A stretch of 64,000 bases of DNA from Caldilineae bacterium. Lineage in GTDB: Bacteria; Chloroflexota; Anaerolineae; JAAEKA01. Made by a program: the position numbers and the translations under genes. Below the pieces are notes generated by a model. The model was not told where the DNA came from and ran no database searches. It saw only the letters and a list, made by a program, of their open reading frames with translations. Positions 467-62,939 of the stretch are shown one piece after another. Every line of letters starts with the position of its first letter. Position 1 is the first letter of the stretch. The stretch covers positions 46,140 to 110,139 of the forward strand of contig JACKBK010000009.1 in assembly GCA_020634555.1 (NCBI GenBank), in the 5' to 3' direction.

Positions 467-1306
467 TCACAGCTCCAGCAGCGGGATCGCAGTTGCGGAG
501 TGTCCGTTCGTACCGTTCAACGATCCGCTGCGAAAACCAGCTAAATCCAGCGTGACATAACGATAACCGGCGGCCAGGACACCCGTGGTGATTTCGCTGT
601 GCAGACTGGCTGCCCGAGCCAGGTCTGCCAGCGGTAGCTCGATGCGAGCGATCTCATCGTGATGGCGGACACGGAACTGCGTGAATCCCAGCGCAACCAG
701 ACAGTCCTCGGCCGTCTCTATCTGGCGCAGCAGGGCCGGGGTGATGGCAGTGCCGTGGGGGACACGCGACGAAAGGCACGCCATGGCGGGTTTGTCCCAC
801 ACAGGCAGGTCCAACTGGCGGGCCAACGCACGCACTTCCTCCTTGGTGATCCCTGCCTCCAGCAGCGGCGAGCGGACGTTGTGCTCGCGGGCGGCTGTCA
901 TCCCCGGTCGAAAATCGCCCACATCGCTGGCGTTGTTGCCATCCAACACCGCGGACCAGCCCTCAGTGATAGCAACAACTTGCAGGCGATCGTGCAGCTC
1001 GGTCTTGCAGAAGTAGCAGCGGTCGAGCGGATTGGCGGCGTAGTTCGGGTCCAGGTGTTCCTCGGTGTCGATCAGGCGATATGGAACCGCCAGTTGTTCG
1101 GCCAGGTCGATCGCGGCGCGCATCTCGCGCGTCGGATAGCTGGGTGATACGCCGATGCAGGCCAGCGCGCGCGCTTGCAGCTCCTGGTGGGCGATGACCA
1201 TCACCAGCGCGCTGTCCACGCCGCCGGAGTAAGCCACCAGCACCGAGTCGCAACTGCGGATGATCTGCCGCAGGTTGACCAGCTTCTCGTTCAACTCAGG
1301 AGTCAT
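467..1306 (-). CDS. larE: ATP-dependent sacrificial sulfur transferase LarE (PP-loop ATPase)
   Basis: 279 aa with PP-loop motif VAYSGGVDSA near the N-terminus and a conserved Cys region (ACLSSR). Its ATG overlaps the larB stop in an ATGA. Confidence 0.85.
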   Translation of the reverse strand: MTPELNEKLVNLRQIIRSCDSVLVAYSGGVDSALVMVIAHQELQARALACIGVSPSYPTREMRAAIDLAEQLAVPYRLIDTEEHLDPNYAANPLDRCYFCKTELHDRLQVVAITEGWSAVLDGNNASDVGDFRPGMTAAREHNVRSPLLEAGITKEEVRALARQLDLPVWDKPAMACLSSRVPHGTAITPALLRQIETAEDCLVALGFTQFRVRHHDEIARIELPLADLARAASLHSEITTGVLAAGYRYVTLDLAGFRSGSLNGTNGHSATAIPLLEL

Positions 1307-2124
1307 TCGTTTCTTTCCCCCGCGGGAGGCTCTGCTTGCTGCGACTGGTCGTTGATGACCGCCGCCAGATGCCCGGCTCCGTATCCGTTGTCAATGTTGA
1401 CCACGGCAACGCCGGTCGCGCAGCTGTTGAGCATGGCCAGCAAGGCTGCCAGCCCGCCGAAGCTGGCGCCGTAGCCGACTGAAGTAGGTACGGCGATCAC
1501 CGGACAGCGCACCAGTCCACCCAGCACGCTGGCCAGCGCACCCTCCATACCCGCCACCGCGATAACGACGTTCGCGCCTTGCAGCGTTGCCACATGCGGC
1601 GTCAGCCGGTGCAGCCCGGCTACGCCGACATCGTAAACGCGGGTAACGGCATGGCCCATCAGGTCGGCGGTCAGCGCGGCTTCCTCGGCCACCGGCAGGT
1701 CGCTGGTGCCCGCGGCGCACAGAACGACCCCTGGTTTACGTGCTCGTTGTGGATTGCGATCCAGCCAAATTGCCCGCGCCAGGCTGTGATATTGCAAATC
1801 GGGTGTCAGCGCTTGAGCCGCTTCGTACTGGGCCGGCGTGGCGCGGGTTGCCAGCACCTGCGCGCTGCGCTCCGCCAGCCGATTGCAGATCAGGGCGACC
1901 TGCTCCGCTGTCTTGCCAGGGCAAAAGACAACTTCGGGGAAACCCCAACGCAGCCCGCGGTGATGGTCCAGCGTCGCGAACCCCATGTCTTCGAAGGGCA
2001 GCGCTCGCAGGTCATCCACCGCGGCGTCGATGGACACCCGTCCGTCGGCCACCATCCCCAGCAAGACGCGGATACTTTGTTCGTTCATGGGCAACAGGAT
2101 AGCCGGGCCGATCTCCTTTGTCAA
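1303..2124 (-). CDS. larB: Nickel-pincer cofactor biosynthesis protein LarB (PurE-like)
   Basis: 273 aa with a C-terminal PurE/AIR-carboxylase-like fold pattern (VVLCAAGTSDLPVAEEA..., VIAVAGMEGALASV). Start is uncertain: TTG at 2124 or ATG at 2088. Confidence 0.8.
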   Translation of the reverse strand: MTKEIGPAILLPMNEQSIRVLLGMVADGRVSIDAAVDDLRALPFEDMGFATLDHHRGLRWGFPEVVFCPGKTAEQVALICNRLAERSAQVLATRATPAQYEAAQALTPDLQYHSLARAIWLDRNPQRARKPGVVLCAAGTSDLPVAEEAALTADLMGHAVTRVYDVGVAGLHRLTPHVATLQGANVVIAVAGMEGALASVLGGLVRCPVIAVPTSVGYGASFGGLAALLAMLNSCATGVAVVNIDNGYGAGHLAAVINDQSQQAEPPAGERNE

Positions 2125-2474
2125 GGATTCCCTACGCGAGAATCAAGACAGCCGCCCGGACGGGCGGACCCGGCACTCCGATCAATGAAAATGAGCGGGA
2201 CTCGGTCGGAGACCGGCCCGAGCGAAGCTTTATTTTCGAAGCAGAGGCGGCGTCCAATATCCGGTTAAGTCAGAGCTGCGGGGCAATCTGGCCAGTATGT
2301 TACCAGATTGCCCCGCCTTTCGGTCAGTTGCCCGTAAGAAACTACTCAACCTGCCGGCACGGCGACTTCGGAAGTCGCTGCAAACCTCAGAAAGGTACAA
2401 TGTCCTGTGAAAGGGGCGCTTTCTCATCGAGTCGGCGACTTCCGAAGTCTTGGCCTGAGCAGTTATGCCCGGGA

Positions 2475-3092
2475 CTATGACTCGGGCGTCCCCAAAGACT
2501 CTATCAGCAAACGCAGGTCGGCATGGATGGCGTCCAGTTTCTCCATCAATGCCTCGTAGGTCGGATTGGGGTCGCCACCGCCCGGATCGCCACCGGTGCC
2601 GGGGTCACCGCCTTCGTCACTTATCTGGAAGGTGAGGAAGAGTGGTCCGATATGGTTGGTGCCGCCCAGCATGCCGATTCCAGACATTCCATCGCTGGGC
2701 AGGGACGGACTTAGAACCCAGACGGTGTGTGGACCGCCTTGAGCCAGGTCCCGAATGTAGGAGCCGGTGCCCAGGCCGAAACCGGTAAATCCGGCGCCGT
2801 CGGTGGACTGGTTGACAGCGCGGTCTTTCCACAGGGTCTTGAGGCCCTGATTCCGCAGGTCGGGAAGCGAGTTGTCGGGCCAACTGTTGGCTACCGGCTG
2901 GCTCGATTTGGCGAGTCCTTGTTCGTCGATTACCCGTACCTTGAGTGTGGCAGGTCCCTCAGTTTCATCCAACCGTACGAGTTTGAACTTGCGCCCCGCG
3001 CCGGCATCCAAAAACTGCACGTTGCCAAATTTGCTGTGCAGCCAGGCCATATCGCGGCGATTACCCTCTTTGTCATAGATCTCCGGTGGCAT
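2475..3092 (-). CDS. Hypothetical protein, no signal peptide, Gly/Asp/Pro linker plus short C-terminal helix
   Basis: Start trimmed to the ATG at 3092 (MPPEIYDKEGN...), preceded by AAGGAG. The longer track ORF would overlap the upstream gene. No family recognised. Last gene of the CHAT cassette. Confidence 0.6.
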   Translation of the reverse strand: MPPEIYDKEGNRRDMAWLHSKFGNVQFLDAGAGRKFKLVRLDETEGPATLKVRVIDEQGLAKSSQPVANSWPDNSLPDLRNQGLKTLWKDRAVNQSTDGAGFTGFGLGTGSYIRDLAQGGPHTVWVLSPSLPSDGMSGIGMLGGTNHIGPLFLTFQISDEGGDPGTGGDPGGGDPNPTYEALMEKLDAIHADLRLLIESLGTPES

Positions 3093-3162
3093 GAAGTTGC
3101 TCCTTCTTTGTGGATAGTTGCCAATCACAGTTCGGTCGGTTCGGCGTCGACGGGATTGGGCG

Positions 3163-4383
3163 TCAAACCAGCGCTTCGCCGGTTGTTGATGGGCTTTCGT
3201 AGGCGATGTTGCCCCAGTCACCAACCGGCACATAGTAGACCCGCACCTCTCCTGTTTCCAGGTTTTCGGCGCGCTGGGCGACGTAAGCAATGCCTTCATG
3301 GGACAGTTCGAACTCAGGTGAATTGGGTACAAACCCGGCGGCGAAAATCTGCTTCTGCAAAGCCGCGTTGGGGTTGAATTCGATCACCTGGCGGCGCTGG
3401 GCTTCTGCCAGCAGCGCCTGCTCCAAAGTTTCGGCCGGTTCAGGGTCTGGCGTTGGATCGGGATCGGGGATCGGTGTTGGCGTCGGAACTGGCTCCTGAG
3501 TCTGCAAGGTTGCCAGCCGGTCGATGATGCCGCCGAGGTGCTCGAAGCTCTCCCATTTCGGCCAGCCGCCCGAAGCGCCGACCACAAACAGCAGCGCGGC
3601 ATCCACGAAGTCGTCCTCCATCAGGTGCTCGTTGTACCACAGCAGCGACTTCCAGTAGTCGTCCTCGGATACCTCAGGATCGGCCAGCCAGCCGACGTCG
3701 TTTCGACCGACCACGCCCTGCGTCATGCCGCATTCGGTGATGATTACCCGGTGCTGGTTCCCATAGACCCGGCGTACATCGGTCATGACACGGCGGTAGC
3801 GCAGGGTGAGCCACATGCCGCCCTCGTTCTTCTCTTCGATGTTTTCCTTGTGCAGCCGCCACATGGTCGGCCAGTCGTACTCGTGGAAGCCGAGATAGGT
3901 GTGGGTCTCCAGTGTGCCGGGGAAATAGTCCACAAAATCCTTGCCCAGCATGTTGCCGGTCGCGAAGTTCATGGCGATGGGTTCGAAGCCGGCAGCTTTG
4001 ATCTTCTCGCCGAACGCGACCTGGAATTCGTCGTATTTGCGCTTACGGTCCGGGCTGGCGCTCTCCGGGAAAACCTCGTTGTACGACTCCCAGGCGTCAA
4101 ACAGCGGCTTGCCCTGGAAGGTCGTCTTGGCAGCTTCCTGCCGCAGGATGCGATCGGCGAACGCTCGTCCGTTCTCCCTGGGGTTGTCGGCGAAGCGCTC
4201 CTGCTCCGCCAGATCCGCGACGATGCGTCCGATCAGAAACGCGTCGGGGTGGACGGCGCGCACCCGGGTCCAGAAACCGACGTTGGAGTCCAGCGCCTTG
4301 ATCACCGCTGGTTTGATGCGCTTGATAGCTTCCAGCACGTCGTCGCCCGTGCGGTTGACGTGGAAGCCATATTTGTGGTTCAT
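3163..4383 (-). CDS. Clan GH-A-like (beta/alpha)8 glycoside-hydrolase-like protein with Pro-rich linker and unknown C-terminal domain
   Basis: Start at the ATG at 4383 (MNHKYGFHVNRTG...) with GGAGA upstream. WESYNEV (acid/base-like NE) and VIITECG (nucleophile-like TE) are spaced as in clan GH-A. Linker PVPTPTPIPDPDPTPDPEP. No signal peptide. Confidence 0.5.
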   Translation of the reverse strand: MNHKYGFHVNRTGDDVLEAIKRIKPAVIKALDSNVGFWTRVRAVHPDAFLIGRIVADLAEQERFADNPRENGRAFADRILRQEAAKTTFQGKPLFDAWESYNEVFPESASPDRKRKYDEFQVAFGEKIKAAGFEPIAMNFATGNMLGKDFVDYFPGTLETHTYLGFHEYDWPTMWRLHKENIEEKNEGGMWLTLRYRRVMTDVRRVYGNQHRVIITECGMTQGVVGRNDVGWLADPEVSEDDYWKSLLWYNEHLMEDDFVDAALLFVVGASGGWPKWESFEHLGGIIDRLATLQTQEPVPTPTPIPDPDPTPDPEPAETLEQALLAEAQRRQVIEFNPNAALQKQIFAAGFVPNSPEFELSHEGIAYVAQRAENLETGEVRVYYVPVGDWGNIAYESPSTTGEALV

Positions 4384-4402
4384 GGTGTGTCTCCAGAAGC
4401 TG

Positions 4403-5536
4403 CTACTGTGGCTTGCCGCCCAGAAGCTTTCTGATCCAGTCAATGAGTGAGTTGTTGCCTGGCTTGGGCTGATCCGGTTTCGGGTCAGGGGTGGGCGTGT
4501 CGGGCGTTGGTTCCGGCTTGGGTGCGGCGCCAGTAATGGTGAACGCCGAGCGGCCGTTGTCGGCGATGTACTTGTAGGGCAGACGCGCGTAACCGGCAGC
4601 CAGGTCGCTCTCGCTGGCCCAGCCCTCGCCCCAACTGTTGCGCACGATGAAATAGCCGCCGCCTGGTACCGCCGTATCGTCCTGGTAGCCCACCATGATC
4701 ATCGCGTGCCCGCCGATGTTGGGGTCAGATGAGAGCGGCACCCGGATGTTGCCGTCCAGTTTGGCCGGTTCTGTCAGCCAGTAGCGGAAAACCGGCACGG
4801 AAAAGGCGACCGGTTTGTCCTCAGCCAGTTTCTTTTTGAGGGTGTCAACCCAGCGCGGCTGGAGCTTTTCACTGCCCTCGACCTTGTAGTCAGCCGCTGC
4901 TTCGGCTGCCCCTTCGGGCGGTGGACCCTGGCCTTCGTTGCCCGCGATCTTATCCGGGTTGTACGGCCAGACCTTCTCGACACAGACGCCGGTGTCCTTC
5001 AGCACGTCCATGGCGATATTGATCCACGTTCCCTCGCCCGGCCATTTGTCGCGATCCTTGCACGCCCAGTAGAGAAACTGCTCCGACAGATTGGCGCTTG
5101 TGCTGTCCTCGCCTTCCAGGAACTCGCGCACGCCGGCGCAGGCATGGGCGACGCAGGTGCCGCGGCTGCGTTGGTTGCGCACCGCCGGCATTCTGGCGAT
5201 CAGGTTGACGCTGGGTGGCGTCACGACGCGGGCCGCCCTGGGCGGTTCGTCGGCGGGATCCGCACCCTCCATTTCGTCCAGCGCGCCGGTGCCGAAGACC
5301 TCCAGCACATCGCGCACCGGCGCAAAGTCAGGCACGGCGGCCTGTGCCTGCGCCACCAGCGCCGCCGTTTCGTCGGGGGTGGCGTTCAGATACTCAGCCA
5401 GCCCGCTGACGCCATCACCTTCCGCGGCGGCAATCAACTCCTCGGCCGTGGTGATCCACAGGCCGGCCAGTTGCTCAGCAGCGTCCGCCGGAAATCCATC
5501 GATACTTGTCAACAATGTCCCTAGTTTATCGGCCAT
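4403..5536 (-). CDS. Papain-like cysteine peptidase (family C1) with N-terminal helix-hairpin-helix-like domain
   Basis: NQRSRGTCVAHA (catalytic Cys128 at nt 5153-5155), GGHAMIMVGY (His), VRNSWGEGW (Asn-Ser-Trp). No signal peptide. Pro-rich tail PKPEPTPDTPTPDPKPDQPKP, then NNSLIDWIRKLLGGKPQ. Confidence 0.85.
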   Translation of the reverse strand: MADKLGTLLTSIDGFPADAAEQLAGLWITTAEELIAAAEGDGVSGLAEYLNATPDETAALVAQAQAAVPDFAPVRDVLEVFGTGALDEMEGADPADEPPRAARVVTPPSVNLIARMPAVRNQRSRGTCVAHACAGVREFLEGEDSTSANLSEQFLYWACKDRDKWPGEGTWINIAMDVLKDTGVCVEKVWPYNPDKIAGNEGQGPPPEGAAEAAADYKVEGSEKLQPRWVDTLKKKLAEDKPVAFSVPVFRYWLTEPAKLDGNIRVPLSSDPNIGGHAMIMVGYQDDTAVPGGGYFIVRNSWGEGWASESDLAAGYARLPYKYIADNGRSAFTITGAAPKPEPTPDTPTPDPKPDQPKPGNNSLIDWIRKLLGGKPQ

Positions 5537-5706
5537 CGGTGTGTTCCTTTCTGTCGGCTGGCTATTCAGCCTCGCGTCCCGTCTCTCCCAAGTTAAACGG
5601 AAACTCGCCGCTTATTCATGCACGTAACGTGCTCATGCTTGACCAAGTGTATCGACAAGCGCTTGCAGGAGCGTGTTGATTCCGTTGAAGGGCTGAAGAA
5701 CAATTT

Positions 5707-8700
5707 TCATGACCTTACTCTCAGTGTCAGCCCGTCGTCGCGGTACTGCCGCCAGAAGATCTCCTCGCTGGTGCGGTAGAGCGCTTGTTCCAGATCCTGG
5801 TTCCAGCCGGCTGGGCCGCCCCGGCGTTGGCGCAGGTTTGCCAGGCTGTCCTCGTTGCCCAGACTGGCCAGCGCGTCGATGGCCTTGCGCCGCAGGTATT
5901 GCTGGTTGGGTGCGCTGAAACTGGCGAAGTGGGGCGCCGCATCGGCCGGCGGCTCGCCCTGCGCGATTGCTTCCATCAGCAGCCGGTCGCGGGTGTCGGC
6001 CAGGCGGGCCAGCGCGTCGATAGCCACCGCCATCAGATTAGGGTCGGCCGCGTCGCGAATGCAGCGTTCCAGCAAGAACGCGCGCGCTTCCGGGCTCTGC
6101 CAACGCACCAGTCCGATCAGGTAGGCCAGACACTTCAGTTGTTGCAAACCTCTCGCGCCGGGCGGCAGCAGTGTGTCCAGGTTGTTGAGTAACGGGATCA
6201 GCACCGCCTGGCGCACGGTGGGCAGATCCACGGTTGCCAGCGCGTAGGCAACTGCCCAGTGGGTCGCCTCGTCCATCTCGCCGTGGAGAAACTTGTCGGC
6301 CAATGCATCGATGGCCTGCTGGGCCGCCGGTTGCCCCTCGGGCGAGAGCTTCAGTTGCATGTGCAGGTCGCCCAGGGCCATGGCTGCCAGGCCCTGGGCG
6401 CTGGTGTTAACGTCCTGGTCCAGCCATTCAATCAGCAGCGGCACGTCGCGGCTTTGCCAGAGGTAGAGCAGCTCCGTCAGCACCAGGTCGATCCCGGCCA
6501 GTAACTCCTCCTGGTCGGTCTCGCCCATGCGCAGCAGGCCGATGATGGCAGCCATGCGCACGTTGCTGTAGTCGTAAGCCGCGCCGCCGCGCCGGTCGAG
6601 TCGCGTTTGGTAGTAAGCGGTCTTGGCCAGTTGTTCGACGGCTCTGGGACTGGCGATCTGGCCGAGCAGCTCAGCCGCGCGGCTGCGTTGGGCTGAGTCA
6701 GGCTCGTTGGTGCTCTGCAATCGCCAGATCAGGGCCGCGGTCACGGTGTCGTTGAGGCTGGCGATCTCCTCCGGAGGCGGCTGGTTAGCCGCCTCCGACA
6801 GACAGCGTGCGGCCAGGAAGGTACGTTCGCTCTCCAGCAGGTTCATGCCGTAGACCATGATCTCCAGAAACGGGGCCACGGCGTCCGCGTCTCCCGCCAA
6901 CAAACCGGCGCTGAACACCAACGTTTCCTCCCACCAGTGCAACCGGGAGAGGCGTCCCAGGGTCGAGGTGATGTCGTCCAGCGACTCTTCCCGGTCGGGA
7001 CGGGCGATGATCTCTCGTGCGCAGCAATAGGCCTGGATGCGGCCGTAGGCAAAGCGCAGCGAGTCGATGCCGTAGGTGGTCAGGAGGCGGTTGGCGACCA
7101 GCGCCTCCACCATTCGCTCCAGGCTGTACTCGCGGTCGCCCCGCACCGCTTTCATGATGGCAAACGCGTCGGCCAGCGACAGCTCGCGCACTCGCCCGGT
7201 CTGCAACCGCCAGGCCAGCGCGTTCAAAATCTGGTCAATATGGCTGTGCAGCCCCTGGCGATTCAGGGTCGGCGTCTGGCTGCTGCGGGTCATCCGGTCA
7301 ACCGTGCCGGCCACGGCGTCGTCCACGATCTTGCCCAGCATCTGTGTGCGCGACTCAGGATACGTTCCGTCGCGCGCGTGGGACAACAGCTTCACCATGA
7401 ACCAGGGCACCGCGGCCAGGTCGTAGATGCCGAAGCGGTCCAGGCGCTCCAGTAGGGGCAGTCCGCCGCGGTCATTGGCAGGTAGGTGTTGCAGGAAGTG
7501 GCGGATGCGGCGGCGTGACATGGGCTGCAGGATGAGGAGGTGCTGGTCCAGCCCGGCAAACCAACGTGCGTCGAATGTTTCCAGGTTGGCCCCAACGACG
7601 TACTGGTGCTGTGGATGCTGGATGATAAACTGGCGCAGCCGGTTCAGCCAGGCGGCCTGCTCGCGTTCCGGCAAGCTGTCGTCGGTGTTGAAAACGAAGC
7701 GCAGCAGCGGCTCACGGCCTGCCAGCAGACCGGACGTCACTGCCGCCGCGCCCGGCCAGATGGCCTCCAACTTTTCGGCTACGAGCTTTTCGATCAGATC
7801 GTTGGAAGCCAGCGAGGTGCTGGGCATCGTCTCCAGATCGATGTACACCGGCAGCACGAAGTCCGCTTCGCCTGGATTCAGCGACATCCTGGCGGTATTC
7901 CAGACGATGCGCTTGAGCTGTGTCCCCCGGTTGCTGCCATAGCCGCCCAGCAGCGCAAGCACCCGCGGCCCGTCGCCGTGCCCATCGTGAGGCGTATGTC
8001 GTTCAAGGACCTCTTCCAGGGCGTTCCAGATGTCGATGGATGCTGTCGACTCGCCGCCGGCGGCCTGAAACTGGCTCAGGTCCTGATGGCCGGTGATGTG
8101 GACTGCTTCCACCGGCAGCGGGATGTACTTGCCGTTGGCCGGATCGAAGAAGCTGAACCGCGGGTCAGCCAGGATGTTTTCCAACGCTGTGCGGGCCGGG
8201 TTGGGCGCCAGCAACTGGCCGTCGGTCAGGCGCATGAACAGGACAGGCACATGGGCGGCCGGCCACCGGCCGGAGAGCAGAGCGGCCCGCGCCTGGTTGC
8301 TGGCCAGGTCCACTTCCCCGTGCCGAAGAAGCTGGCGATAGAAGGCTTGTGTGAAGGCGCGCGCTGTGTTGATGGGCACCAGGTCTTGCATAGCCAACAC
8401 GGCCGGCACGCCGGCCTGTACCAGCCGCGGCGCAAACGCGCGGAAGGCGTCGGTCGGGTCAGCTGTGGCGCTCTGGCAGCTTGCCAGGAAGACCAGCCGC
8501 AGCGCATCGGGCCGTTGAGCCGCGTCGCGCGCGTGCAGCGCCAGCAGGCCGGCGTGCTCGTCGGCGTAGATGTGGCGAACCTGGTTGTTGCGATTGGCCA
8601 GCAGAATCACTGCACGGCCATGGCGGCTGAGCGCCCCGTGCGCGATCAGGTGCAGGACGTGTGCACCGTTGCTCAGCGCGGCGTCGATGGCCTCCAGCGT

Positions 8701-9273
8701 ACACGGTTGGGGGATGCGGATCAACTCAACGGGCAGACCATCGACCGCTACCTGCAAAGCGTCATACTCCTGATCAGGGTCGATTTCCATCAACCCTCCG
8801 GGGTAGTCGCTGAGGTTGGCCGGGCTGGCCACGGCGACGACGATCTTGAGCGGGTAGGCGCGCACCGGCTCGCCGTACTCCTGCGACAGCGCGATATAGC
8901 GGGAGAAGGGGGTCGCATCGCTCGCGGCCAGATTGACGCCGATGCCGCCTTCGCCGACTTCCTGCATGAGTTCCCAGGGAACTGCATACAGATTCGGCGC
9001 GCTGCTGTCGATGCTCAGCCGGATGCGGCGCTGCGGACGCGCACCGCGGATCAGATCCCAGGCGCTGCGCACGAGGTCGTCCTGCACCAGCAGGTTGAAT
9101 AGCTCGCGGCCTGCCTCAGCGTCCAGCCGCCGCGGCGTCCAGTCCGCGATGTCGGGGGTGATGAAGCCGCCGCGGAACATACGCTGGTTGTCCAGCGAAA
9201 GTTCGACCGGATAGCCGGCCGGCTCGCGTTTCAGTAAGCGAATCTCGAGGTCGGCGTGAGTGAGTGGTGTCAT
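5707..9273 (-). CDS. CHAT (caspase-fold) protease domain - NACHT-like STAND module with degenerate Walker A - HEAT repeat protein
   Basis: 1188 aa. HLIAHG (His212, nt 8638-8640) and FLASCQSA (Cys266, nt 8476-8478) form the CHAT dyad. Central LLGGYGSNRGT (nt 7921-7947) sits where a P-loop would be, followed by FVFNTDDS and an LILQPMSRRRIRHFL pattern. C-terminal HEAT/PBS-lyase-like repeats (AAELLGQIASPRAVEQL, AIDALASLGNEDSLANL). Confidence 0.8.
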   Translation of the reverse strand: MTPLTHADLEIRLLKREPAGYPVELSLDNQRMFRGGFITPDIADWTPRRLDAEAGRELFNLLVQDDLVRSAWDLIRGARPQRRIRLSIDSSAPNLYAVPWELMQEVGEGGIGVNLAASDATPFSRYIALSQEYGEPVRAYPLKIVVAVASPANLSDYPGGLMEIDPDQEYDALQVAVDGLPVELIRIPQPCTLEAIDAALSNGAHVLHLIAHGALSRHGRAVILLANRNNQVRHIYADEHAGLLALHARDAAQRPDALRLVFLASCQSATADPTDAFRAFAPRLVQAGVPAVLAMQDLVPINTARAFTQAFYRQLLRHGEVDLASNQARAALLSGRWPAAHVPVLFMRLTDGQLLAPNPARTALENILADPRFSFFDPANGKYIPLPVEAVHITGHQDLSQFQAAGGESTASIDIWNALEEVLERHTPHDGHGDGPRVLALLGGYGSNRGTQLKRIVWNTARMSLNPGEADFVLPVYIDLETMPSTSLASNDLIEKLVAEKLEAIWPGAAAVTSGLLAGREPLLRFVFNTDDSLPEREQAAWLNRLRQFIIQHPQHQYVVGANLETFDARWFAGLDQHLLILQPMSRRRIRHFLQHLPANDRGGLPLLERLDRFGIYDLAAVPWFMVKLLSHARDGTYPESRTQMLGKIVDDAVAGTVDRMTRSSQTPTLNRQGLHSHIDQILNALAWRLQTGRVRELSLADAFAIMKAVRGDREYSLERMVEALVANRLLTTYGIDSLRFAYGRIQAYCCAREIIARPDREESLDDITSTLGRLSRLHWWEETLVFSAGLLAGDADAVAPFLEIMVYGMNLLESERTFLAARCLSEAANQPPPEEIASLNDTVTAALIWRLQSTNEPDSAQRSRAAELLGQIASPRAVEQLAKTAYYQTRLDRRGGAAYDYSNVRMAAIIGLLRMGETDQEELLAGIDLVLTELLYLWQSRDVPLLIEWLDQDVNTSAQGLAAMALGDLHMQLKLSPEGQPAAQQAIDALADKFLHGEMDEATHWAVAYALATVDLPTVRQAVLIPLLNNLDTLLPPGARGLQQLKCLAYLIGLVRWQSPEARAFLLERCIRDAADPNLMAVAIDALARLADTRDRLLMEAIAQGEPPADAAPHFASFSAPNQQYLRRKAIDALASLGNEDSLANLRQRRGGPAGWNQDLEQALYRTSEEIFWRQYRDDGLTLRVRS

Positions 9274-9395: not shown

Positions 9396-10436
9396 CTATT
9401 CCCGCGCGATCTCTAAAAGATCCCCCAGCACTGCATACCCCGTCTCCATTCGCCCCGCACCGGGACCGACCAGTGTCACGTCGCCCAGCAGGTCGGTGGT
9501 GTAGGTTACAGCGTTGACGGCGCCGCCGACGCCGGCCAGTGGATGGCTCAGCGGTACACGGGTTGGGGTTACACTGGCTTTGGTGGTTCCATCCGAGTGC
9601 CACACCTTGGCGATCAATTTCCAGCGTTCGCCGGCCGCCCGCGCTGCATCTACGTCGGCCAACGTTAGCTTGCTGATCCCGGTGCGGTCTACGGCAGCAA
9701 CCTGCAAGTCGCCGCCCATCAGCACGTTGGCCAGAATTACAGCTTTGCCGGCCGCGTCCCATCCCTCCACGTCTGCGGTGGGGTCGGCCTCTGCGTAGCC
9801 CAGCCGTTGCGCCTCAGCCAGCGCGCTGGCATAGCTTTGACCGGTTTCCATCTGCGTCAGGATGTAGTTGGTGGTGCCGTTGAGAATGCCCTGAATTTGG
9901 CTGATCGTGCAGCCGGCCAACGCGCGCTGGGCCAGGCGGATGGCCGGCGTGCCGCTCATCACCGTGCCCTCGAAACGAAACTGGACGCCCTGCGCGGCCG
10001 CCAGGCCGGCCAGTTCCTGGTATGCCAGCGCGACCGGTCCCTTGTTGGTCAGCACCGCGTTCTTGCCGTTCTCGAATGCTGCCTTGACGTGATCGATGGC
10101 CGGCTGGCCCGTCTGTACGTCTGTCCAACTGATCTCGACCACCGTGTCGGCATTGCTGCGGCGGATGGTCTCCAGGCTGTCCAGGCCGGTGAACAGGCCG
10201 CGGTTGACAGGGTATTCTTCCAGCTTGCCGGTGCGCCGGACCACCTCCAGCAGGGCTGCTGCGTCCAGACCGGTTGCCTGATAGAGACTGCCTTTCAGCA
10301 GATCGCTGACTGCGACGATCTGGAAACGGACGCCGTGCTGCTGCTCCAGACTGTCGCCTTTGTCGACGAGAATCTCGGCTAGTCCCTGACCGACGGTACC
10401 GAAGCCGATCAGGGCGATGCGGTGGGTGATTGTCAT
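9396..10436 (-). CDS. hom: Homoserine dehydrogenase
   Basis: 346 aa. N-terminal Rossmann motif IALIGFGTVGQG. Central GILNGTTNYIL and AEADPTADVEGWDAA motifs are typical of homoserine dehydrogenase. GAGGAGG lies upstream of the ATG. Confidence 0.9.
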   Translation of the reverse strand: MTITHRIALIGFGTVGQGLAEILVDKGDSLEQQHGVRFQIVAVSDLLKGSLYQATGLDAAALLEVVRRTGKLEEYPVNRGLFTGLDSLETIRRSNADTVVEISWTDVQTGQPAIDHVKAAFENGKNAVLTNKGPVALAYQELAGLAAAQGVQFRFEGTVMSGTPAIRLAQRALAGCTISQIQGILNGTTNYILTQMETGQSYASALAEAQRLGYAEADPTADVEGWDAAGKAVILANVLMGGDLQVAAVDRTGISKLTLADVDAARAAGERWKLIAKVWHSDGTTKASVTPTRVPLSHPLAGVGGAVNAVTYTTDLLGDVTLVGPGAGRMETGYAVLGDLLEIARE

Positions 10437-13977: not shown

Positions 13978-14694
13978 CTACTCGGCGGGTTCTGTGACGG
14001 CAGCTTCGATTTGCGCCAGAGTTGCTGAGTCGATCCGATAATCCTTGGAGCGCTGCCGAAGCAATGCCTTCAGGCCCTTTGACTGCACCACGGGGATGGC
14101 GGGGTTGCTCAGTTGCAGATCCACGTTGGGATTGGTGAACAGCGCCAACGGCTGCACTTCGATGCTTGCCTCAGGCAGGTGGGCATCCAGAAATTTCTGC
14201 ACCTTGTTGGCATCCTCGATAGCGTCAGCGGTAGGGTTGCCGATGCCGTCGCCGCTGAAGGCCGCCAGGAATCGCATCACGCCACCTTTCTGGCTCCAGC
14301 GATTGCCGGTGTTGCTGACCTTGCCGCCTTGCTCGCGCAGCGCAAACGTGTAGACGCCGCTGGGACCGACGAAAACGTAGGAGGCCGGCAGCGTGAACGA
14401 GTAAAGGACGTAGCGGTCGTCGAAGCCCTTGAGCTCCTTGGCGAGACGCTCATCCGGGCGCGGGCTGCGGCCAAAACGGCGCATGTTGTGCGAACCGACG
14501 TTGGCCAGGATGAAGCCCAGGATCAGACAGGCAAAAGAACCCATCAGCGTGATCTGGTAGTTTTGAGTGTTGGTTGGATTGGCGCGAAAGCTAAGAACCA
14601 TGCCGACGCCCAACACGGCTAAGCCGCCCCAACTGGCATATTTGCCCAGCCTGGCGCGGCGTGCGATCAGTTTTTCGTTTGTGTATGCTCGCAT
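13978..14694 (-). CDS. Membrane protein: two N-terminal TM helices plus NERD-like soluble domain (tentative)
   Basis: 238 aa. Hydrophobic segments WGGLAVLGVGMVLSF and LMGSFACLILGFILANV. YVFVGPSGVYTFALREQGGKV resembles the NERD core strand pattern. Family call is weak. Confidence 0.4.
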   Translation of the reverse strand: MRAYTNEKLIARRARLGKYASWGGLAVLGVGMVLSFRANPTNTQNYQITLMGSFACLILGFILANVGSHNMRRFGRSPRPDERLAKELKGFDDRYVLYSFTLPASYVFVGPSGVYTFALREQGGKVSNTGNRWSQKGGVMRFLAAFSGDGIGNPTADAIEDANKVQKFLDAHLPEASIEVQPLALFTNPNVDLQLSNPAIPVVQSKGLKALLRQRSKDYRIDSATLAQIEAAVTEPAE

Positions 14695-59381: not shown

Positions 59382-60172
59382 GATTGCCTCATGGTAAGCG
59401 TGGCGATCAGATCGCCTGATGGATCGAGCAGTTCGACGACCGTCGGCAGCGTCCAAGCCGCCTCGGTCTGGCCCCAGAAGAGGTTCTGCGGATCGTCGAC
59501 GCCGATGCGGGTGTTGACAACGACCTGTCCACCCGGCGCGAGGGTGAAACGGGGCAGCCGGTAGCGCCGTCCGTCCGCGCTGGCCAGCGACCAGTTGAGC
59601 AGCGACAACGGATCGGCCGTGTCGTTGCCCAGCACCACCGCCTCCTCCTCGATGACGCCCGGCGCCAGGATCTCCACGATGGTTGGCGCGGCGACACTGC
59701 TGGTGGTTGCCAGCAGCGCGCGCACCACAATGGGCGTCGTCGTGGGTGTTGGGGTCGGTGTGGTGGCGACGGTTGGGCTGGGTTCAACCGTAACCGTCGG
59801 CGTGGCGGTGGGCAGGCTGCCCAGCGGCACCAGCAGTTCCTGGCCGACAAACAGCCGGTCGGGGTTGACGGAGCCGTTCAGCGCCCGCAGCACGTCCAGA
59901 TCGACGCCCAGTTGCAGCGCGATGCCGAGAAAGGTATCGCCCGACTGCACCTGGTAGACCTCGGTCGCCATGGACGGCATCGGCAGCGGCGTGGGCGTGC
60001 CGGTGGCCGGCGGCGCAGGCGTGGCCGTCGATGCCACGATGACGTACGGCGTCGGCGCTGTAAACGTCCTCGTCAGTCCGAGGTTGAACGCGACCAGCAC
60101 CACGGCTATCGAGATGGCGCACGACAGCAGCGTGTTGATGATGATGACTACCAGCATCTGGCGACGGGTCAT
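59378..60172 (-). CDS. Membrane-anchored LysM plus lamin-tail-domain (LTD) protein
   Basis: N-terminal TM helix. LysM YQVQSGDTFLGIALQLGVDLDVLRALNG. Thr/Pro linkers. C-terminal LTD-like VEILAPG...LLNWSLASADGRRYRLPRFTLAPGG. Confidence 0.75.
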   Translation of the reverse strand: MTRRQMLVVIIINTLLSCAISIAVVLVAFNLGLTRTFTAPTPYVIVASTATPAPPATGTPTPLPMPSMATEVYQVQSGDTFLGIALQLGVDLDVLRALNGSVNPDRLFVGQELLVPLGSLPTATPTVTVEPSPTVATTPTPTPTTTPIVVRALLATTSSVAAPTIVEILAPGVIEEEAVVLGNDTADPLSLLNWSLASADGRRYRLPRFTLAPGGQVVVNTRIGVDDPQNLFWGQTEAAWTLPTVVELLDPSGDLIATLTMRQS

Positions 60173-62724: not shown

Positions 62725-62939
62725 GGGTCGATGATAGCCTGCGCGCGACACGATGTCAAGTAGAGGTTGTCCAGTTTTCAGGCAAGCAAATCCTCCTGCG
62801 TTCCGGCTGGTCTCCTGACCGCCCGGAACGCAGGTAGGCGCGTTGTGAGGCAAACGGACTTGTGATGGCTGTCTACCTGTGGTAAGCTACGACAACCACC
62901 GACCTATCCACTATTCTCCTCTAAGATAGGAACATCGCC

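Follow-up and report, generated by a model that had tools for sequence, protein, structure and literature searches.

Four adjacent genes on contig JACKBK010000009.1 of a filamentous Caldilineae bacterium, analysed within a stretch of 64,000 nt (the window, to whose positions all coordinates refer) and called G1 to G4 here (Table 1), comprise an NLR-like protease pair (G1 and G2) beside a phage-related lysin pair (G3 and G4) whose products have no signal peptides. We read this arrangement tentatively, with somewhat less than even confidence, as a protease-gated lysis pathway; the setting suggests a protease-triggered self-lysis device and does not prove one. As the initial annotation had described, the genes share one strand with gaps of 170, 19 and 70 nt, and the flanking hom and lar genes were recovered with Pfam as homoserine dehydrogenase on one side and AIRC/NAD-synthase-like (larB/larE-like) genes on the other. 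The locus belongs to the core chromosome and lies close to rpoBC; PADLOC matched no system, and the window holds no holin-like gene. Screening G1-G4 in 19-residue windows at a mean Kyte-Doolittle hydropathy threshold of 1.5, together with inspection of the N-termini, identified no window above the threshold and no signal-like N-terminus, in agreement with the earlier statement that none of the products has a signal peptide or transmembrane (TM) helix.

Table 1 Features of the G1-G4 locus and its lar-side flank, with positions in the window.
Feature	Position	Strand	Basis or property
G1, 1188-aa CHAT / NACHT-derived (degenerate P-loop) / HEAT-repeat protein	5707..9273	-	ORF, Pfam, MCB9153512.1
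G1 CHAT caspase-fold domain, residues 53-336, catalytic H212 and C266	8266..9117	-	Pfam CHAT E 1.4e-26
G1 NACHT-derived NTPase-like region, approximately residues 437-610	7444..7965	-	Pfam NACHT matches of collinear homologues
G1 C-terminal HEAT/alpha-solenoid region, residues 801-1188	5710..6873	-	Pfam HEAT_2, two stretches
G2, 377-aa papain-family (C1) cysteine peptidase	4403..5536	-	ORF, Pfam, MCB9153511.1
G2 N-terminal helical domain, residues 1-95	5252..5536	-	46-52% identity kept in orthologues
G2 C-terminal amphipathic cationic helix NNSLIDWIRKLLGGKPQ, after Pro/Glu/Lys-rich linker	4406..4456	-	hydrophobic moment 0.63
G3, 406 aa counted from ATG	3163..4383	-	ORF
G3 catalytic domain, clan GH-A-like (beta/alpha)8 barrel, residues 1-295	3499..4383	-	AF2, Foldseek
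G3 C-terminal alpha/beta domain (Cdom), residues 319-396, after Pro-rich linker	3196..3429	-	phage G4-like proteins
G4, 205 aa counted from ATG	2475..3092	-	ORF
G4 core, conserved beta-sandwich, residues 1-160	2613..3092	-	AF2 pLDDT 91
G4 C-terminal helix, residues 179-199, ...LMEKLDAIHADLRLLIESLG, after Gly/Asp/Pro linker	2496..2558	-	AF2 helix
Highly structured intergenic RNA between G4 and larB	2255..2474	-	MFE -97.8 kcal/mol, z = -6.2 vs shuffles
larB-like (AIRC) and larE-like (NAD-synthase-like) genes, downstream neighbours of G3-G4	467..2124	-	Pfam; context

G1, which NCBI names 'CHAT domain-containing protein', has more than 400 homologues. Its CHAT domain retains the His/Cys dyad noted previously, with H212 and C266 invariant in 23 homologues and the neighbouring G213 likewise invariant in the G1 homologue alignment (A2), and shares approximately 50% identity with the equivalent domain of CHAT-SIR2_2 proteins. 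The proposed NACHT-like middle holds by descent only: the collinear full-length homologues P0136, P0138 and P0141 exceed the Pfam NACHT gathering score and keep GxxGMGKS, whereas the region in G1 itself has no Pfam match even at E ≤ 1, and both its Walker A (GGYGSNRGT, residues 443-451) and Walker B equivalent (FVFNTDD, 526-532, with Asn replacing the Walker B aspartate) are degenerate. Judged by these motifs, the NTPase switch of G1 is degenerate. The HEAT repeats are well supported (Pfam HEAT_2 E 1.7e-11), and this region, presumably a sensor or docking domain, keeps 58-62% identity across species and is more conserved than the middle region. The layout is thus effector-NOD-repeat, as in bacterial NLR-like proteins and as the initial annotation had classed it; in multicellular bacteria, CHAT is a common effector at the N-terminus of NLRs (Dyrka et al., bioRxiv 10.1101/2020.01.06.895854). 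Relatives of G1 were found in islands rich in CHAT-SIR2_2 and nSTAND1 genes; the SIR2_2, nSTAND1-trypsin and TPR-CHAT genes with which they cluster are typical of conflict islands.

The assignment of G2 to the C1 cysteine peptidases is borne out by a Pfam Peptidase_C1 match (residues 116-309, E 1.4e-14, 55 bits; cutoff 20.7), with Q122, C128, H277 and N300 in the expected motifs NQRSRGTC(128), GGH(277)AM and RN(300)SWG. Residues 1-95 have no significant Pfam match; they may form a pro- or regulatory domain, and the role as prodomain is one that we only infer. At the opposite end, the amphipathic helix is predicted from its sequence to be a membrane-targeting tail, and the pattern SNW[FL]xx[IL][LF][RH]KLF[RQ][RK]PP is kept in loci L007, L019, L031 and L037 behind a linker of variable length. 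Upstream of G2 lies, in seven loci, either G1 or G1 together with a C25 caspase-like peptidase (X).

For G3, the AF2 model (pLDDT 80) matched GH51, GH26, GH128, GH17 and GH5 structures at Foldseek E-values of 1e-6 to 1e-4, consistent with the earlier clan GH-A-like call; N102-E103 and E217, invariant among homologues, are the predicted acid/base and nucleophile, respectively. The C-terminal Cdom, a predicted wall-binding module with no Pfam match, is also the terminal domain of phage G4-like proteins (55% identity) and of M23-...-G4 and barrel-G4 fusion proteins, and the genes adjoining G3 homologues include M23, Muramidase and SH3_3. G4, previously taken for an orphan, proved to have 91 close homologues and at least 738 cluster representatives at E ≤ 1e-3, and most of its homologues are on phage-like contigs that lack G1 and G2. 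Foldseek found no match to its core at E < 1e-3 in PDB or BFVD. Among the fusion proteins scanned, this core was joined to M23 in 5 of 20, to Amidase_2 in 3 and to SLT in 1, and at least 14 representatives have a G3-like barrel fused straight to it; the core could be a catalytic or a wall-binding part of lysins. The G4 tail motif is kept in 21 homologues, phage copies among them, and other homologues carry Cdom in its place. None of G2, G3 and G4 is of a housekeeping family.

Phage contigs carry the same modules. In a 549-aa phage protein, a barrel homologous to that of G3 is joined to Amidase_2 and a Cdom-like tail; this protein adjoins one made of G4 core and Cdom. In three phage lineages, small CHAT proteases whose C-terminal tails are amphipathic or TM (membrane-associated) are separated from G4 by a few genes at most. 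These architectures place G3 and G4 in a modular toolkit of cell-wall lysins that is common to Chloroflexota and their phages. Of the original picture of latent cytosolic partners that degrade protein and glycan from inside, the cytosolic hydrolases stand; because G3 and G4 are wall-directed, they are not generic degraders within the cell. The presence of G3-like, G4 and Cdom modules and of CHAT and C1 peptidases on phage contigs would also fit a prophage lysis cassette that is decaying and serves no function today, as would the slightly low GC3 of G4 (0.69, neighbours 0.75-0.82), but we consider this very improbable: none of the four ORFs is disrupted, their catalytic residues are conserved, the block is kept between species at 47-76% protein identity (73-76% for G3/G4), several MAGs carry identical cassettes, and the DNA near the locus contains no integrase, tRNA, attachment repeat or further phage genes.

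The block G1-G2-G3-G4-larB-larE, whose co-occurrence had been put forward for checking, is present on the core chromosome of at least four Chloroflexota species and recurs beyond the window in L007, L012 and L019, so its synteny is not confined to one genome. G1-G2-G3-G4 is the order in the window and L007, and G1-X-G2-G3-G4 that in L012 and L019; no partner of the G1 family is more widespread than X, which the window lacks, and distant G1 relatives have X or no partner. Two further contigs (of lengths 107345 and 68669) probably carry both G1 and G3, as judged by equal-sized contigs among the matches to each. The cassette is nevertheless not one fixed unit, since its modules separate across loci. 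G1-G2 occurs with no G3-G4 downstream in L031 and L037; in L013, a CHAT-SIR2_2 gene precedes G3-G4-larB-larE; and L050 and L051 have G3 with M23 or muramidase genes and without G1, G2 and G4. On the other side of the block, larB and larE follow G4 in L007, L012, L013, L018 and L019 (72-91% identity), and their synteny holds in all 6 bacterial G3-G4 loci.

This modularity speaks for a rival explanation, in which G3-G4, together with larB-larE, is a conserved chromosomal pair of autolysins that remodel the wall (in septum splitting, breakage of filaments or turnover) and reach it by an unrecognised route, and a separate NLR-like module of several proteases, G1-(X)-G2, with a conflict or regulatory function, landed upstream in a variable spot. 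Besides the constant G3-G4-larB-larE with its changing upstream occupant and the loci with G1-G2 alone, the gene immediately 5' of G1 differs between the window (hom) and the close relative L012 (a PPC-domain protein), G3 (more than 426 homologues) is spread far more widely than the G1 clade, and G1 relatives reside in the STAND-rich islands. Compared with L007, G3/G4 are 74-76% identical, like larB/larE (74-75%), and G1/G2 47-65%. By these identities G3/G4 evolve as slowly as larB/larE and G1/G2 faster, which poorly fits a single co-evolving unit, and this conservation on a core chromosome is unlike a mobile defence island. Given the larB/larE synteny and the core-chromosome setting, the genes could be neighbours by inheritance and not through selection, and CHAT genes are so numerous in these genomes that a degree of adjacency should arise by chance; no adaptor motif common to G1 and the partner tails was found. 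We regard juxtaposition without coupling as possible, if rather doubtful. G3, G4 and their homologues lack both signal peptides and TM segments, so in ordinary remodelling they would depend on an unknown route of export; the G2-G3 gap is just 19 nt; and pure chance does not easily explain why clan-CD proteases repeatedly lie beside lysin modules in unrelated arrangements, phages included. From gene order, this coupling of clan-CD protease and lysin recurs in G1-(X)-G2-G3-G4, L013, L051 (G3, two muramidases, a C25-like peptidase and a patatin), L032 (G1, CHAT-TPR, X, X ... Muramidase) and phages.

The preferred reading, self-lysis gated by proteases, would make the locus a chromosomal two-module composite inherited vertically in Anaerolineae/Caldilineae. 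It builds on established domain identities, intact catalytic residues, the degenerate P-loop, lysin fusions, phage homologues and recurrent synteny; G1/G2 are plausibly coupled to G3/G4, and each arrow between proteins is one that we infer. Module A would combine G1, as an NLR-like scaffold of active CHAT protease, NACHT without NTPase motifs and HEAT solenoid, with G2, anchored to the inner membrane face via its C-terminal amphipathic helix; X, the third protease of this module in relatives, would have been lost in the window. Module B would consist of split lysin pieces, with G3 a GH-A-type glycanase barrel bearing a wall-binding C-domain and G4 a lysin-associated beta-sandwich with a C-terminal helix. 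Without export signals, these would remain in the cytoplasm until a breach of the membrane gives them access to the wall, as with phage endolysins and pneumococcal LytA. A cue sensed or bound by the HEAT region would assemble or unmask the CHAT protease without an NTP cycle; CHAT would then cleave and activate G2 (possibly by removing its N-terminal domain), act on the G3/G4 linkers, or both; proteolysis near the membrane would compromise the envelope, and the stored lysins would dissolve the wall, killing the cell within its filament. Such self-lysis could serve abortive infection or developmental fragmentation. Abortive infection through a proteolytic cascade from CHAT to a second caspase has a precedent (Steens et al., bioRxiv 10.1101/2023.06.23.546230), and for multicellular bacteria both peptidoglycan-directed effectors and inactive STAND components have been predicted as parts of conflict systems (Kaur et al. 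2020, PMC7159879).

With an endogenous cue (filament fragmentation, sacrificial cells or nutrient stress), the same mechanism would have a developmental use, which we think unlikely. A parallel is HetF, a CHAT protease that acts in cyanobacterial division and differentiation. The G1 CHAT domain is weakly similar to it (NCBIfam E 6e-12), but at the level of that domain only and far under the cutoff (44.7 bits vs 1200). Core-chromosome location, vertical inheritance and slow G3/G4 evolution fit this use, as do a HEAT region that is conserved rather than hypervariable, a degenerate NTPase more in keeping with a scaffold than with a fast switch, and hosts that are all filamentous Chloroflexota; the locus holds no developmental regulator, however, and the conflict-type company of G1 relatives also counts against it. 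The intergenic stretch between G4 and larB contains two 17-nt palindromic repeats (family D17), and its structured RNA is possibly a terminator or processing element that would separate transcription units.

The four minus-strand genes, G1 to G4, are consecutive intact open reading frames separated by gaps of 170 nt (G1-G2), 19 nt (G2-G3) and 70 nt (G3-G4). They come from a Caldilineae metagenome-assembled genome, in which MCB9153509-MCB9153512 (G4 to G1) are annotated as 'hypothetical', 'hypothetical', 'C1 family peptidase' and 'CHAT domain-containing protein'. The surroundings are core chromosome, with hom (homoserine dehydrogenase) upstream of G1, an AIRC (larB-like) gene and an NAD-synthase-like (larE-like) gene downstream of G4, and queG, fabF, plsX, rpoB, rpoC and fusA in the wider window. 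No mark of a mobile defence island or prophage was found: tRNA genes and Rfam families gave no match in the locus or the window, no flanking repeats mark mobile-element boundaries around the locus, integrase, phage and mobile genes are absent, and composition is typical (GC 0.60-0.66 in the locus vs 0.61 in the window). All four proteins lack hydrophobic stretches and export-like N-termini, and a promoter and terminator scan was uninformative, its counts being at or below shuffle expectation.

Coordinates of the features discussed (L, fetched loci or contigs; X, C25 caspase-like peptidase gene of relatives)
Feature	Sequence	Position	Strand	Remark
G1	window	5707-9273	minus	intact ORF, 1188 aa
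G2	window	4403-5536	minus	intact ORF, 377 aa
G3	window	3163-4383	minus	intact ORF, 406 aa counted from ATG
G4	window	2475-3092	minus	intact ORF, 205 aa counted from ATG
Homoserine dehydrogenase	window	9396-10436		upstream of G1
larB/larE-like genes	window	467-2124		
G4-larB intergenic RNA	window	2255-2474	minus	
17-nt palindromic repeats	window	2360-2376; 2433-2449		
G1-G2 gap	window	5537-5706		X absent
NERD-like protein	window	13978-14694	minus	238 aa
TPR-SLT lytic transglycosylase	window	60169-62853	minus	894 aa
G3 (beta/alpha)8 barrel	G3 protein	residues 1-295		AF2 model
G3 disordered Pro-rich linker	G3 protein	between barrel and Cdom		AF2 model
G3 Cdom, small alpha/beta domain	G3 protein	residues 320-396 (about)		AF2 model
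X	L012	5798-7426		
X	L019	5093-7327		
X	L035	3769-3969		
G1, two overlapping ORFs	L012	2147-5801		
G2, matches in several frames	L012	7471-8600		
Small phage CHAT protease	L003	10875-11591		next to/near G4-type modules
Small phage CHAT protease	L008	10615-11328		next to/near G4-type modules
Small phage CHAT protease	L001	14980-15609		next to/near G4-type modules
3002-aa protein, then Acb5-family protein	L001	1-3248		
Island around G1 orthologue	L031	15583-23660		
Island around G1 orthologue	L032	1-16385		

The initial annotation described G1 as a CHAT-NACHT(like)-HEAT protein with an intact His/Cys dyad. Pfam assigned residues 53-336 to the caspase-fold CHAT domain of clan CD (E = 1.4e-26; 94.1 bits against a gathering score of 24) and identified HEAT_2 repeats from residue 842 onward, and the dyad was borne out by an alignment of 23 full-length homologues in which H212, G213 and C266 are invariant. 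No Pfam match to NACHT was obtained for G1, even at E<=1 over residues 351-800. Because collinear full-length homologues (33-36% identity, 99% coverage) pass the NACHT gathering score of 26.7 (P0136, 32.7 bits; P0141, 31.6 bits; P0138, 27.6 bits), G1 appears to descend from a NACHT protein whose domain, at about residues 437-610, has degenerated. The alignment displays this decay in stages, with a P-loop that reads GDAGMGKS in NACHT-positive relatives, has become GGYGSNKST in intermediates and is GGYGSNRGT in the clade of the window, and the Walker B segment shifts from LLIDGSD in relatives to FVFNTDD in G1. Neither a GxxxxGK[ST] Walker A motif nor the Walker B acidic residue is present in G1, the changes in its clade being K to R, G to N and D to N. 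The CHAT and HEAT_2 assignments and the tripartite effector-NOD-repeat layout therefore stand, whereas the NACHT part holds through the homologues only. As read from its sequence, G1 is NLR-like by descent and layout; with Walker A and B degenerate, the NTP switch that defines such proteins has probably been lost in the G1 clade, and G1 is probably a nucleotide-independent scaffold for a CHAT protease predicted from its intact dyad to be active.

The CHAT domain of G1 is about 50% identical to that of the abundant CHAT-SIR2_2 proteins of about 690 aa. When we searched PADLOC-DB v2, no system matched G2, G3 or G4, and G1 returned domain-level matches only (SAVED_CHAT, E = 2.6e-8; Avs2, E = 0.03); PDB sequence searches with G1 and with an X profile returned nothing informative. 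Orthologues of G1 on L031 and L032 lie in dense islands with genes for CHAT-SIR2_2, nSTAND1-WD40, nSTAND1-Trypsin_2, nSTAND1-pentapeptide-Tricorn and CHAT-TPR proteins, and L031 carries a tyrosine integrase 8 kb upstream.

G2 is a C1 (papain-family) cysteine peptidase, as had been proposed, with a Pfam score of 55.1 bits (cutoff 20.7) and with Q122 (oxyanion), C128, H277 and N300 in canonical C1 motifs. Its helical N-terminal domain of about 95 aa is without a family match, neither an I29-type inhibitory propeptide nor any other significant Pfam match being found in the N-terminal 105 residues; we hypothesise a prodomain-like role for it. At the other end, a linker of variable length rich in Pro, Glu, Lys and Gln precedes a conserved cationic amphipathic tail (NNSLIDWIRKLLGGKPQ in the window; SNW[FL]xx[IL][LF][RH]KLF[RQ][RK]PP in orthologues). 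This tail is similar to the helices that target MinD or FtsA to the membrane, and by analogy with these we infer that it may hold G2 at the inner face of the membrane.

G3 matched no Pfam, NCBIfam or PHROG family and by sequence belongs to no named CAZy/Pfam glycoside hydrolase (GH) family; neither its own sequence nor a profile of 53 sequences matched any PDB sequence. The AF2 model built from 53 homologues (pLDDT 80) comprises a barrel, a linker and a small C-terminal domain (Cdom), predicted to be a wall-binding module. Foldseek matched the barrel to members of GH51, GH26, GH128, GH17 and GH5 (E 1e-6 to 1e-4, probability 1.0). Eight beta/alpha units, an invariant N102-E103 following strand 97-99 (strand 4) and an invariant E217 within strand 212-219 (strand 7) place the predicted structure in clan GH-A, in keeping with the GH-A-like TIM barrel initially suspected; in the model these residues fit the predicted acid/base and nucleophile, and H167-x-Y169 presumably corresponds to the strand-6 motif of GH5-type enzymes. 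More than 426 homologues of G3 were identified, of which the best 120 all share at least 56% identity and a length of about 400 aa.

G4, by contrast with its earlier description as an orphan, has 91 close homologues, and an exhaustive search gave 738 cluster representatives at E<=1e-3. Its highly conserved core of 160 aa, with W125, S133, D134, T145 and H147 among the invariant residues, is followed by a low-complexity linker and then by alternative tails, namely an amphipathic helix (as in the window), a two-helix tail or the same Cdom as in G3. In P0352, P0355, P0375 and P0395 two cores occur in tandem in one polypeptide, a repetition that is commoner among binding modules than among catalytic domains. 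AF2 predicts the core confidently as a beta-sandwich (pLDDT 91), for which Foldseek identified no significant structural neighbour in the PDB or BFVD; intradiol dioxygenase, transthyretin and tail-fibre folds were rejected as too weak (best E 5e-3 to 9e-3, TM about 0.3). PHROGs and NCBIfam searches gave trivial or low-complexity matches only, and GenBank phages gave no match to G3 or G4.

The function of G3 and G4 is indicated by the company that their domains keep. Among 20 long representatives scanned, the G4 core is fused to Peptidase_M23 in five, to Amidase_2 in three and to SLT in one, and in at least 14 representatives a G3-like barrel is joined directly to the G4 core, some of these also carrying Cdom (e.g. 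P0396). The domains thus recombine with bona fide peptidoglycan hydrolases and wall-binding modules in the manner of modular lysins, which argues that G3 and G4 are split pieces of one predicted wall-lysin toolkit, with the G4 core as either a catalytic or a binding module.

Homologues of G4 also occur on phage-like contigs, including six from IMG/VR, beside tape-measure, DnaB, Thy1, GIY-YIG and Gp53-like baseplate genes, large beta-helix/GH141/Disaggregatase proteins, and DUF5060 or Cellulase proteins. One phage protein of 549 aa combines a G3-like barrel (WEGPNEP, LLITECG) with Amidase_2 (E = 1.6e-14) and a Cdom-like tail. Despite this kinship with phage genes, it is unlikely that G1-G4 are a dead prophage remnant, a reading we rejected because the four open reading frames are intact and conserved in core chromosome. 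Within a few genes of G4 homologues, three phage lineages encode a small CHAT protease (209-238 aa) with an intact dyad and a C-terminal amphipathic helix (…KLIKLLNGG) or TM helix, and one phage encodes a C1 peptidase whose N-terminus bears a hydrophobic segment. A second viral scan gave no new contigs with the small CHAT. A caspase-fold protease in a phage lysis/tail region seems to be undescribed. On L001 a 3002-aa protein is followed by a 70-aa Acb5-family (anti-CBASS) protein, which points to a large phage of Chloroflexota equipped with counter-defence genes. Two short contigs binned outside Chloroflexota, L014 with Ignavibacteriaceae and L022 with Gammaproteobacteria, are probably mis-binned phage fragments: their G4 and barrel-Amidase_2 genes are almost the same in type as those of Chloroflexota phages.

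Gene order around homologues of G1-G4
Sequence	Gene order
window, L007	G1-G2-G3-G4-larB-larE
L012 (Caldilineales, 82-95% identical), L019 (Anaerolinea)	G1-X-G2-G3-G4-larB-larE
L013	CHAT-SIR2_2, then G3-G4-larB-larE
L018	G3-G4-larB
L036	G1-G2, contig end
L031, L037	G1-G2; G3-G4 absent downstream
L035	G1-X, contig end
L032	G1, CHAT-TPR, X, X, ... Muramidase
L040, L042, L044 (distant G1 relatives, 33-40% identity)	X adjacent
L043, L049 (distant G1 relatives)	X nearby
L033, L034 and others (distant G1 relatives)	G1 without partner
L050	G3 homologue beside M23
L051	G3 homologue beside two Muramidase/SH3 proteins, X-like peptidase, patatin, S8 peptidase

When the window's domains were compared by tblastn with every fetched locus, the four-gene block was found in at least four species, and probably in six if hits on contigs of equal length are taken to share a contig. 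The proposal that the genes recur together is upheld to that extent; they are not a fixed unit, since G1-G2 and G3-G4 also occur apart. Between G1 and G2 the close relatives (G1 82-86% identical) carry X, a member of the Peptidase_C25 family (L040 copy, 34 bits against 23) with an invariant SHG...FACYGAGTP dyad, and no partner of the G1 family is more widely conserved than X. It looks to have been lost recently from the window, where no remnant was detected in the G1-G2 gap or elsewhere. The broken G1 and G2 of L012, in which G3 and G4 are intact, reflect either assembly frameshift errors or decay of the protease genes into pseudogenes.

An NLR-derived CHAT protease scaffold, a predicted membrane-tethered papain-family protease and two phage-related lysins without signal peptides are firmly identified; the link between proteases and lysins is circumstantial. 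Coupling is favoured by the recurrence of the block, by the short G2-G3 gap and, most strongly, by the repeated adjacency of caspase-fold proteases and lysin modules in phages and where gene orders are unrelated. Against it, the modules demonstrably occur apart, the constant lar synteny downstream points to inheritance, evolutionary rates differ between modules (identity to L007 is 53-62% for G1 and 47-65% for G2, vs 73-76% for G3, 76% for G4 and 74-75% for larB and larE), CHAT genes are abundant in these genomes, and no adaptor motif is common to G1 and the partner tails. Local alignments of the G2, G3 and G4 tails with the G1 termini were no better than shuffles for a shared short motif of the BASS amyloid or EAD adaptor kind; a 'HADL' common to the G1 N-terminus and the G4 tail, and a resemblance of the X and G4 tails (hhalign E 0.26), were not significant. 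Weighing these points, we rank protease-gated autolysis first, as a tentative reading that falls somewhat short of probable. A simple juxtaposition of the two modules, to which the points against coupling lend themselves and for which the repeated adjacency would be coincidental, is possible if rather doubtful; the same autolysis pathway answering to a developmental cue seems distinctly unlikely.

Protease-gated autolysis may be put more broadly. Chloroflexota and their phages would share an undescribed lysis logic whose gate, in place of or beside a holin, consists of caspase-fold or papain proteases associated with the membrane: G1/X/G2 in hosts and, in phages, the small CHAT proteins with a tail anchor. 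The gate would free or activate a hitherto unrecognised family of cytoplasmic wall lysins, made up of the GH-A-like barrel, the novel G4 beta-sandwich and Cdom, and hosts would have wired this machinery, taken from phages, to a nucleotide-independent NLR-like sensor. We consider this broader proposal rather improbable; if true, a multicellular bacterium would have a genuine death pathway leading from caspase to dissolution of the cell wall. Were the coupling real, an NLR-like scaffold would act through a protease relay to dissolve the cell's own wall with stored lysins, an end-point that differs from those known for bacterial NLRs (nucleases, NADases, pore-formers) and is apparently common to phages of the same hosts. 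With or without coupling, the analysis defines three unannotated domain families (the GH-A-like barrel, the G4 beta-sandwich and the C-terminal wall-module) as a large predicted lysin toolkit for Chloroflexota, and an NLR-like clade without NTPase motifs and with its protease intact that offers a test case for nucleotide-independent NLR signalling. To our knowledge, the envelopes of Chloroflexota are poorly understood and almost none of their phages has been characterised.

Among known systems, G1 is closest in its CHAT-NACHT-derived-HEAT layout to bacterial NLR/STAND proteins with CHAT effectors (bNACHT, Avs-type), and it shares with such conflict systems a filamentous Chloroflexota host and relatives in islands with CHAT-SIR2_2 and nSTAND1 proteins. 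NLR/STAND proteins with N-terminal CHAT belong to the conflict systems described for multicellular bacteria (Dyrka et al. 2020, bioRxiv 10.1101/2020.01.06.895854; Kaur et al. 2020, PMC7159879), and CHAT and TIR are key effector domains in the literature. Unlike these, the G1 clade has degenerate Walker motifs, nearer to the 'inactive STAND' components that Kaur et al. 2020 (PMC7159879) predicted alongside peptidoglycan-directed effectors; it matches PADLOC Avs/bNACHT models no better than the Avs2 value, its C-terminal repeats are conserved rather than diversifying, and its partners are separate protease and lysin genes, not a fused nuclease or TIR.

The SAVED-CHAT/PCaspase system is a CRISPR/CBASS hybrid of type III-B in which a proteolytic cascade runs from CHAT to another caspase and leads to abortive infection (bioRxiv 10.1101/2023.06.23.546230, Steens et al.). 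The pairing of G1 with X in L012, L019, L040, L042 and L044 similarly sets a CHAT gene beside a second caspase-fold gene, the SAVED_CHAT match of G1 is weak, and the likeness in concept is that one protease activates another to cause cell death. In contrast, the G1 locus is without a SAVED domain, cyclic-oligonucleotide signalling or CRISPR context, its sensor is NACHT-derived plus HEAT, and the window is without a second caspase-like gene, the adjoining protease being the papain-family G2.

An endolysin with a C-terminal amphipathic helix is known from an Acinetobacter prophage (PMC6024848). G3 and G4 resemble phage endolysins in combining a catalytic or accessory domain, a flexible linker and a C-terminal targeting module without a signal peptide, and in that modules homologous to theirs are fused to Amidase_2, M23 and SLT and occur on phage contigs near tail and lysis genes; they differ in residing in core chromosome without a prophage or holin, in a barrel that is GH-A-like rather than a classical muramidase or glucosaminidase, and in a G4 fold without a known structural relative. 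Pneumococcal LytA is likewise a chromosomal, conserved, phage-related wall hydrolase that is cytoplasmic, has no export signal, carries a C-terminal wall-binding module and needs membrane perturbation to act. The likeness is only functional: the catalytic and binding domains differ, and LytA is not known to have an associated caspase-like or NLR-like protease. Already known, then, are the G1-type architecture, a CHAT-to-caspase cascade, signal-less lysins and C-terminal helices on endolysins. What seems new is the gene combination, the decayed P-loop with retained protease, the three lysin domain families, one without a structural relative, and the host-phage parallel.

The larB/larE-like genes trail G3-G4 in every non-phage locus seen (the window, L007, L012, L013, L018 and L019). 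Lactate racemase supplies D-lactate for peptidoglycan in some bacteria (some Firmicutes), and a cell-wall theme behind the association is conceivable. The intergenic RNA between G4 and larB has a minimum free energy of -97.8 kcal/mol (z = -6.2; no shuffle equals it) and no Rfam match, and contains two 17-nt palindromic repeats (CGGCGACTTCGGAAGTC) in long-range pairing, beside which lies a perfect 15-bp hairpin (GGGGCAATCTGG...). This structure argues for separate transcription units; a functional link to larB/larE, which we considered, gained no support. Between G4 and larB the close relative L012 has a far shorter gap (about 130 nt). Elsewhere in the window are a protein with a weak match to the NERD nuclease-related domain (E = 2e-3, below cutoff) and a TPR-SLT lytic transglycosylase.
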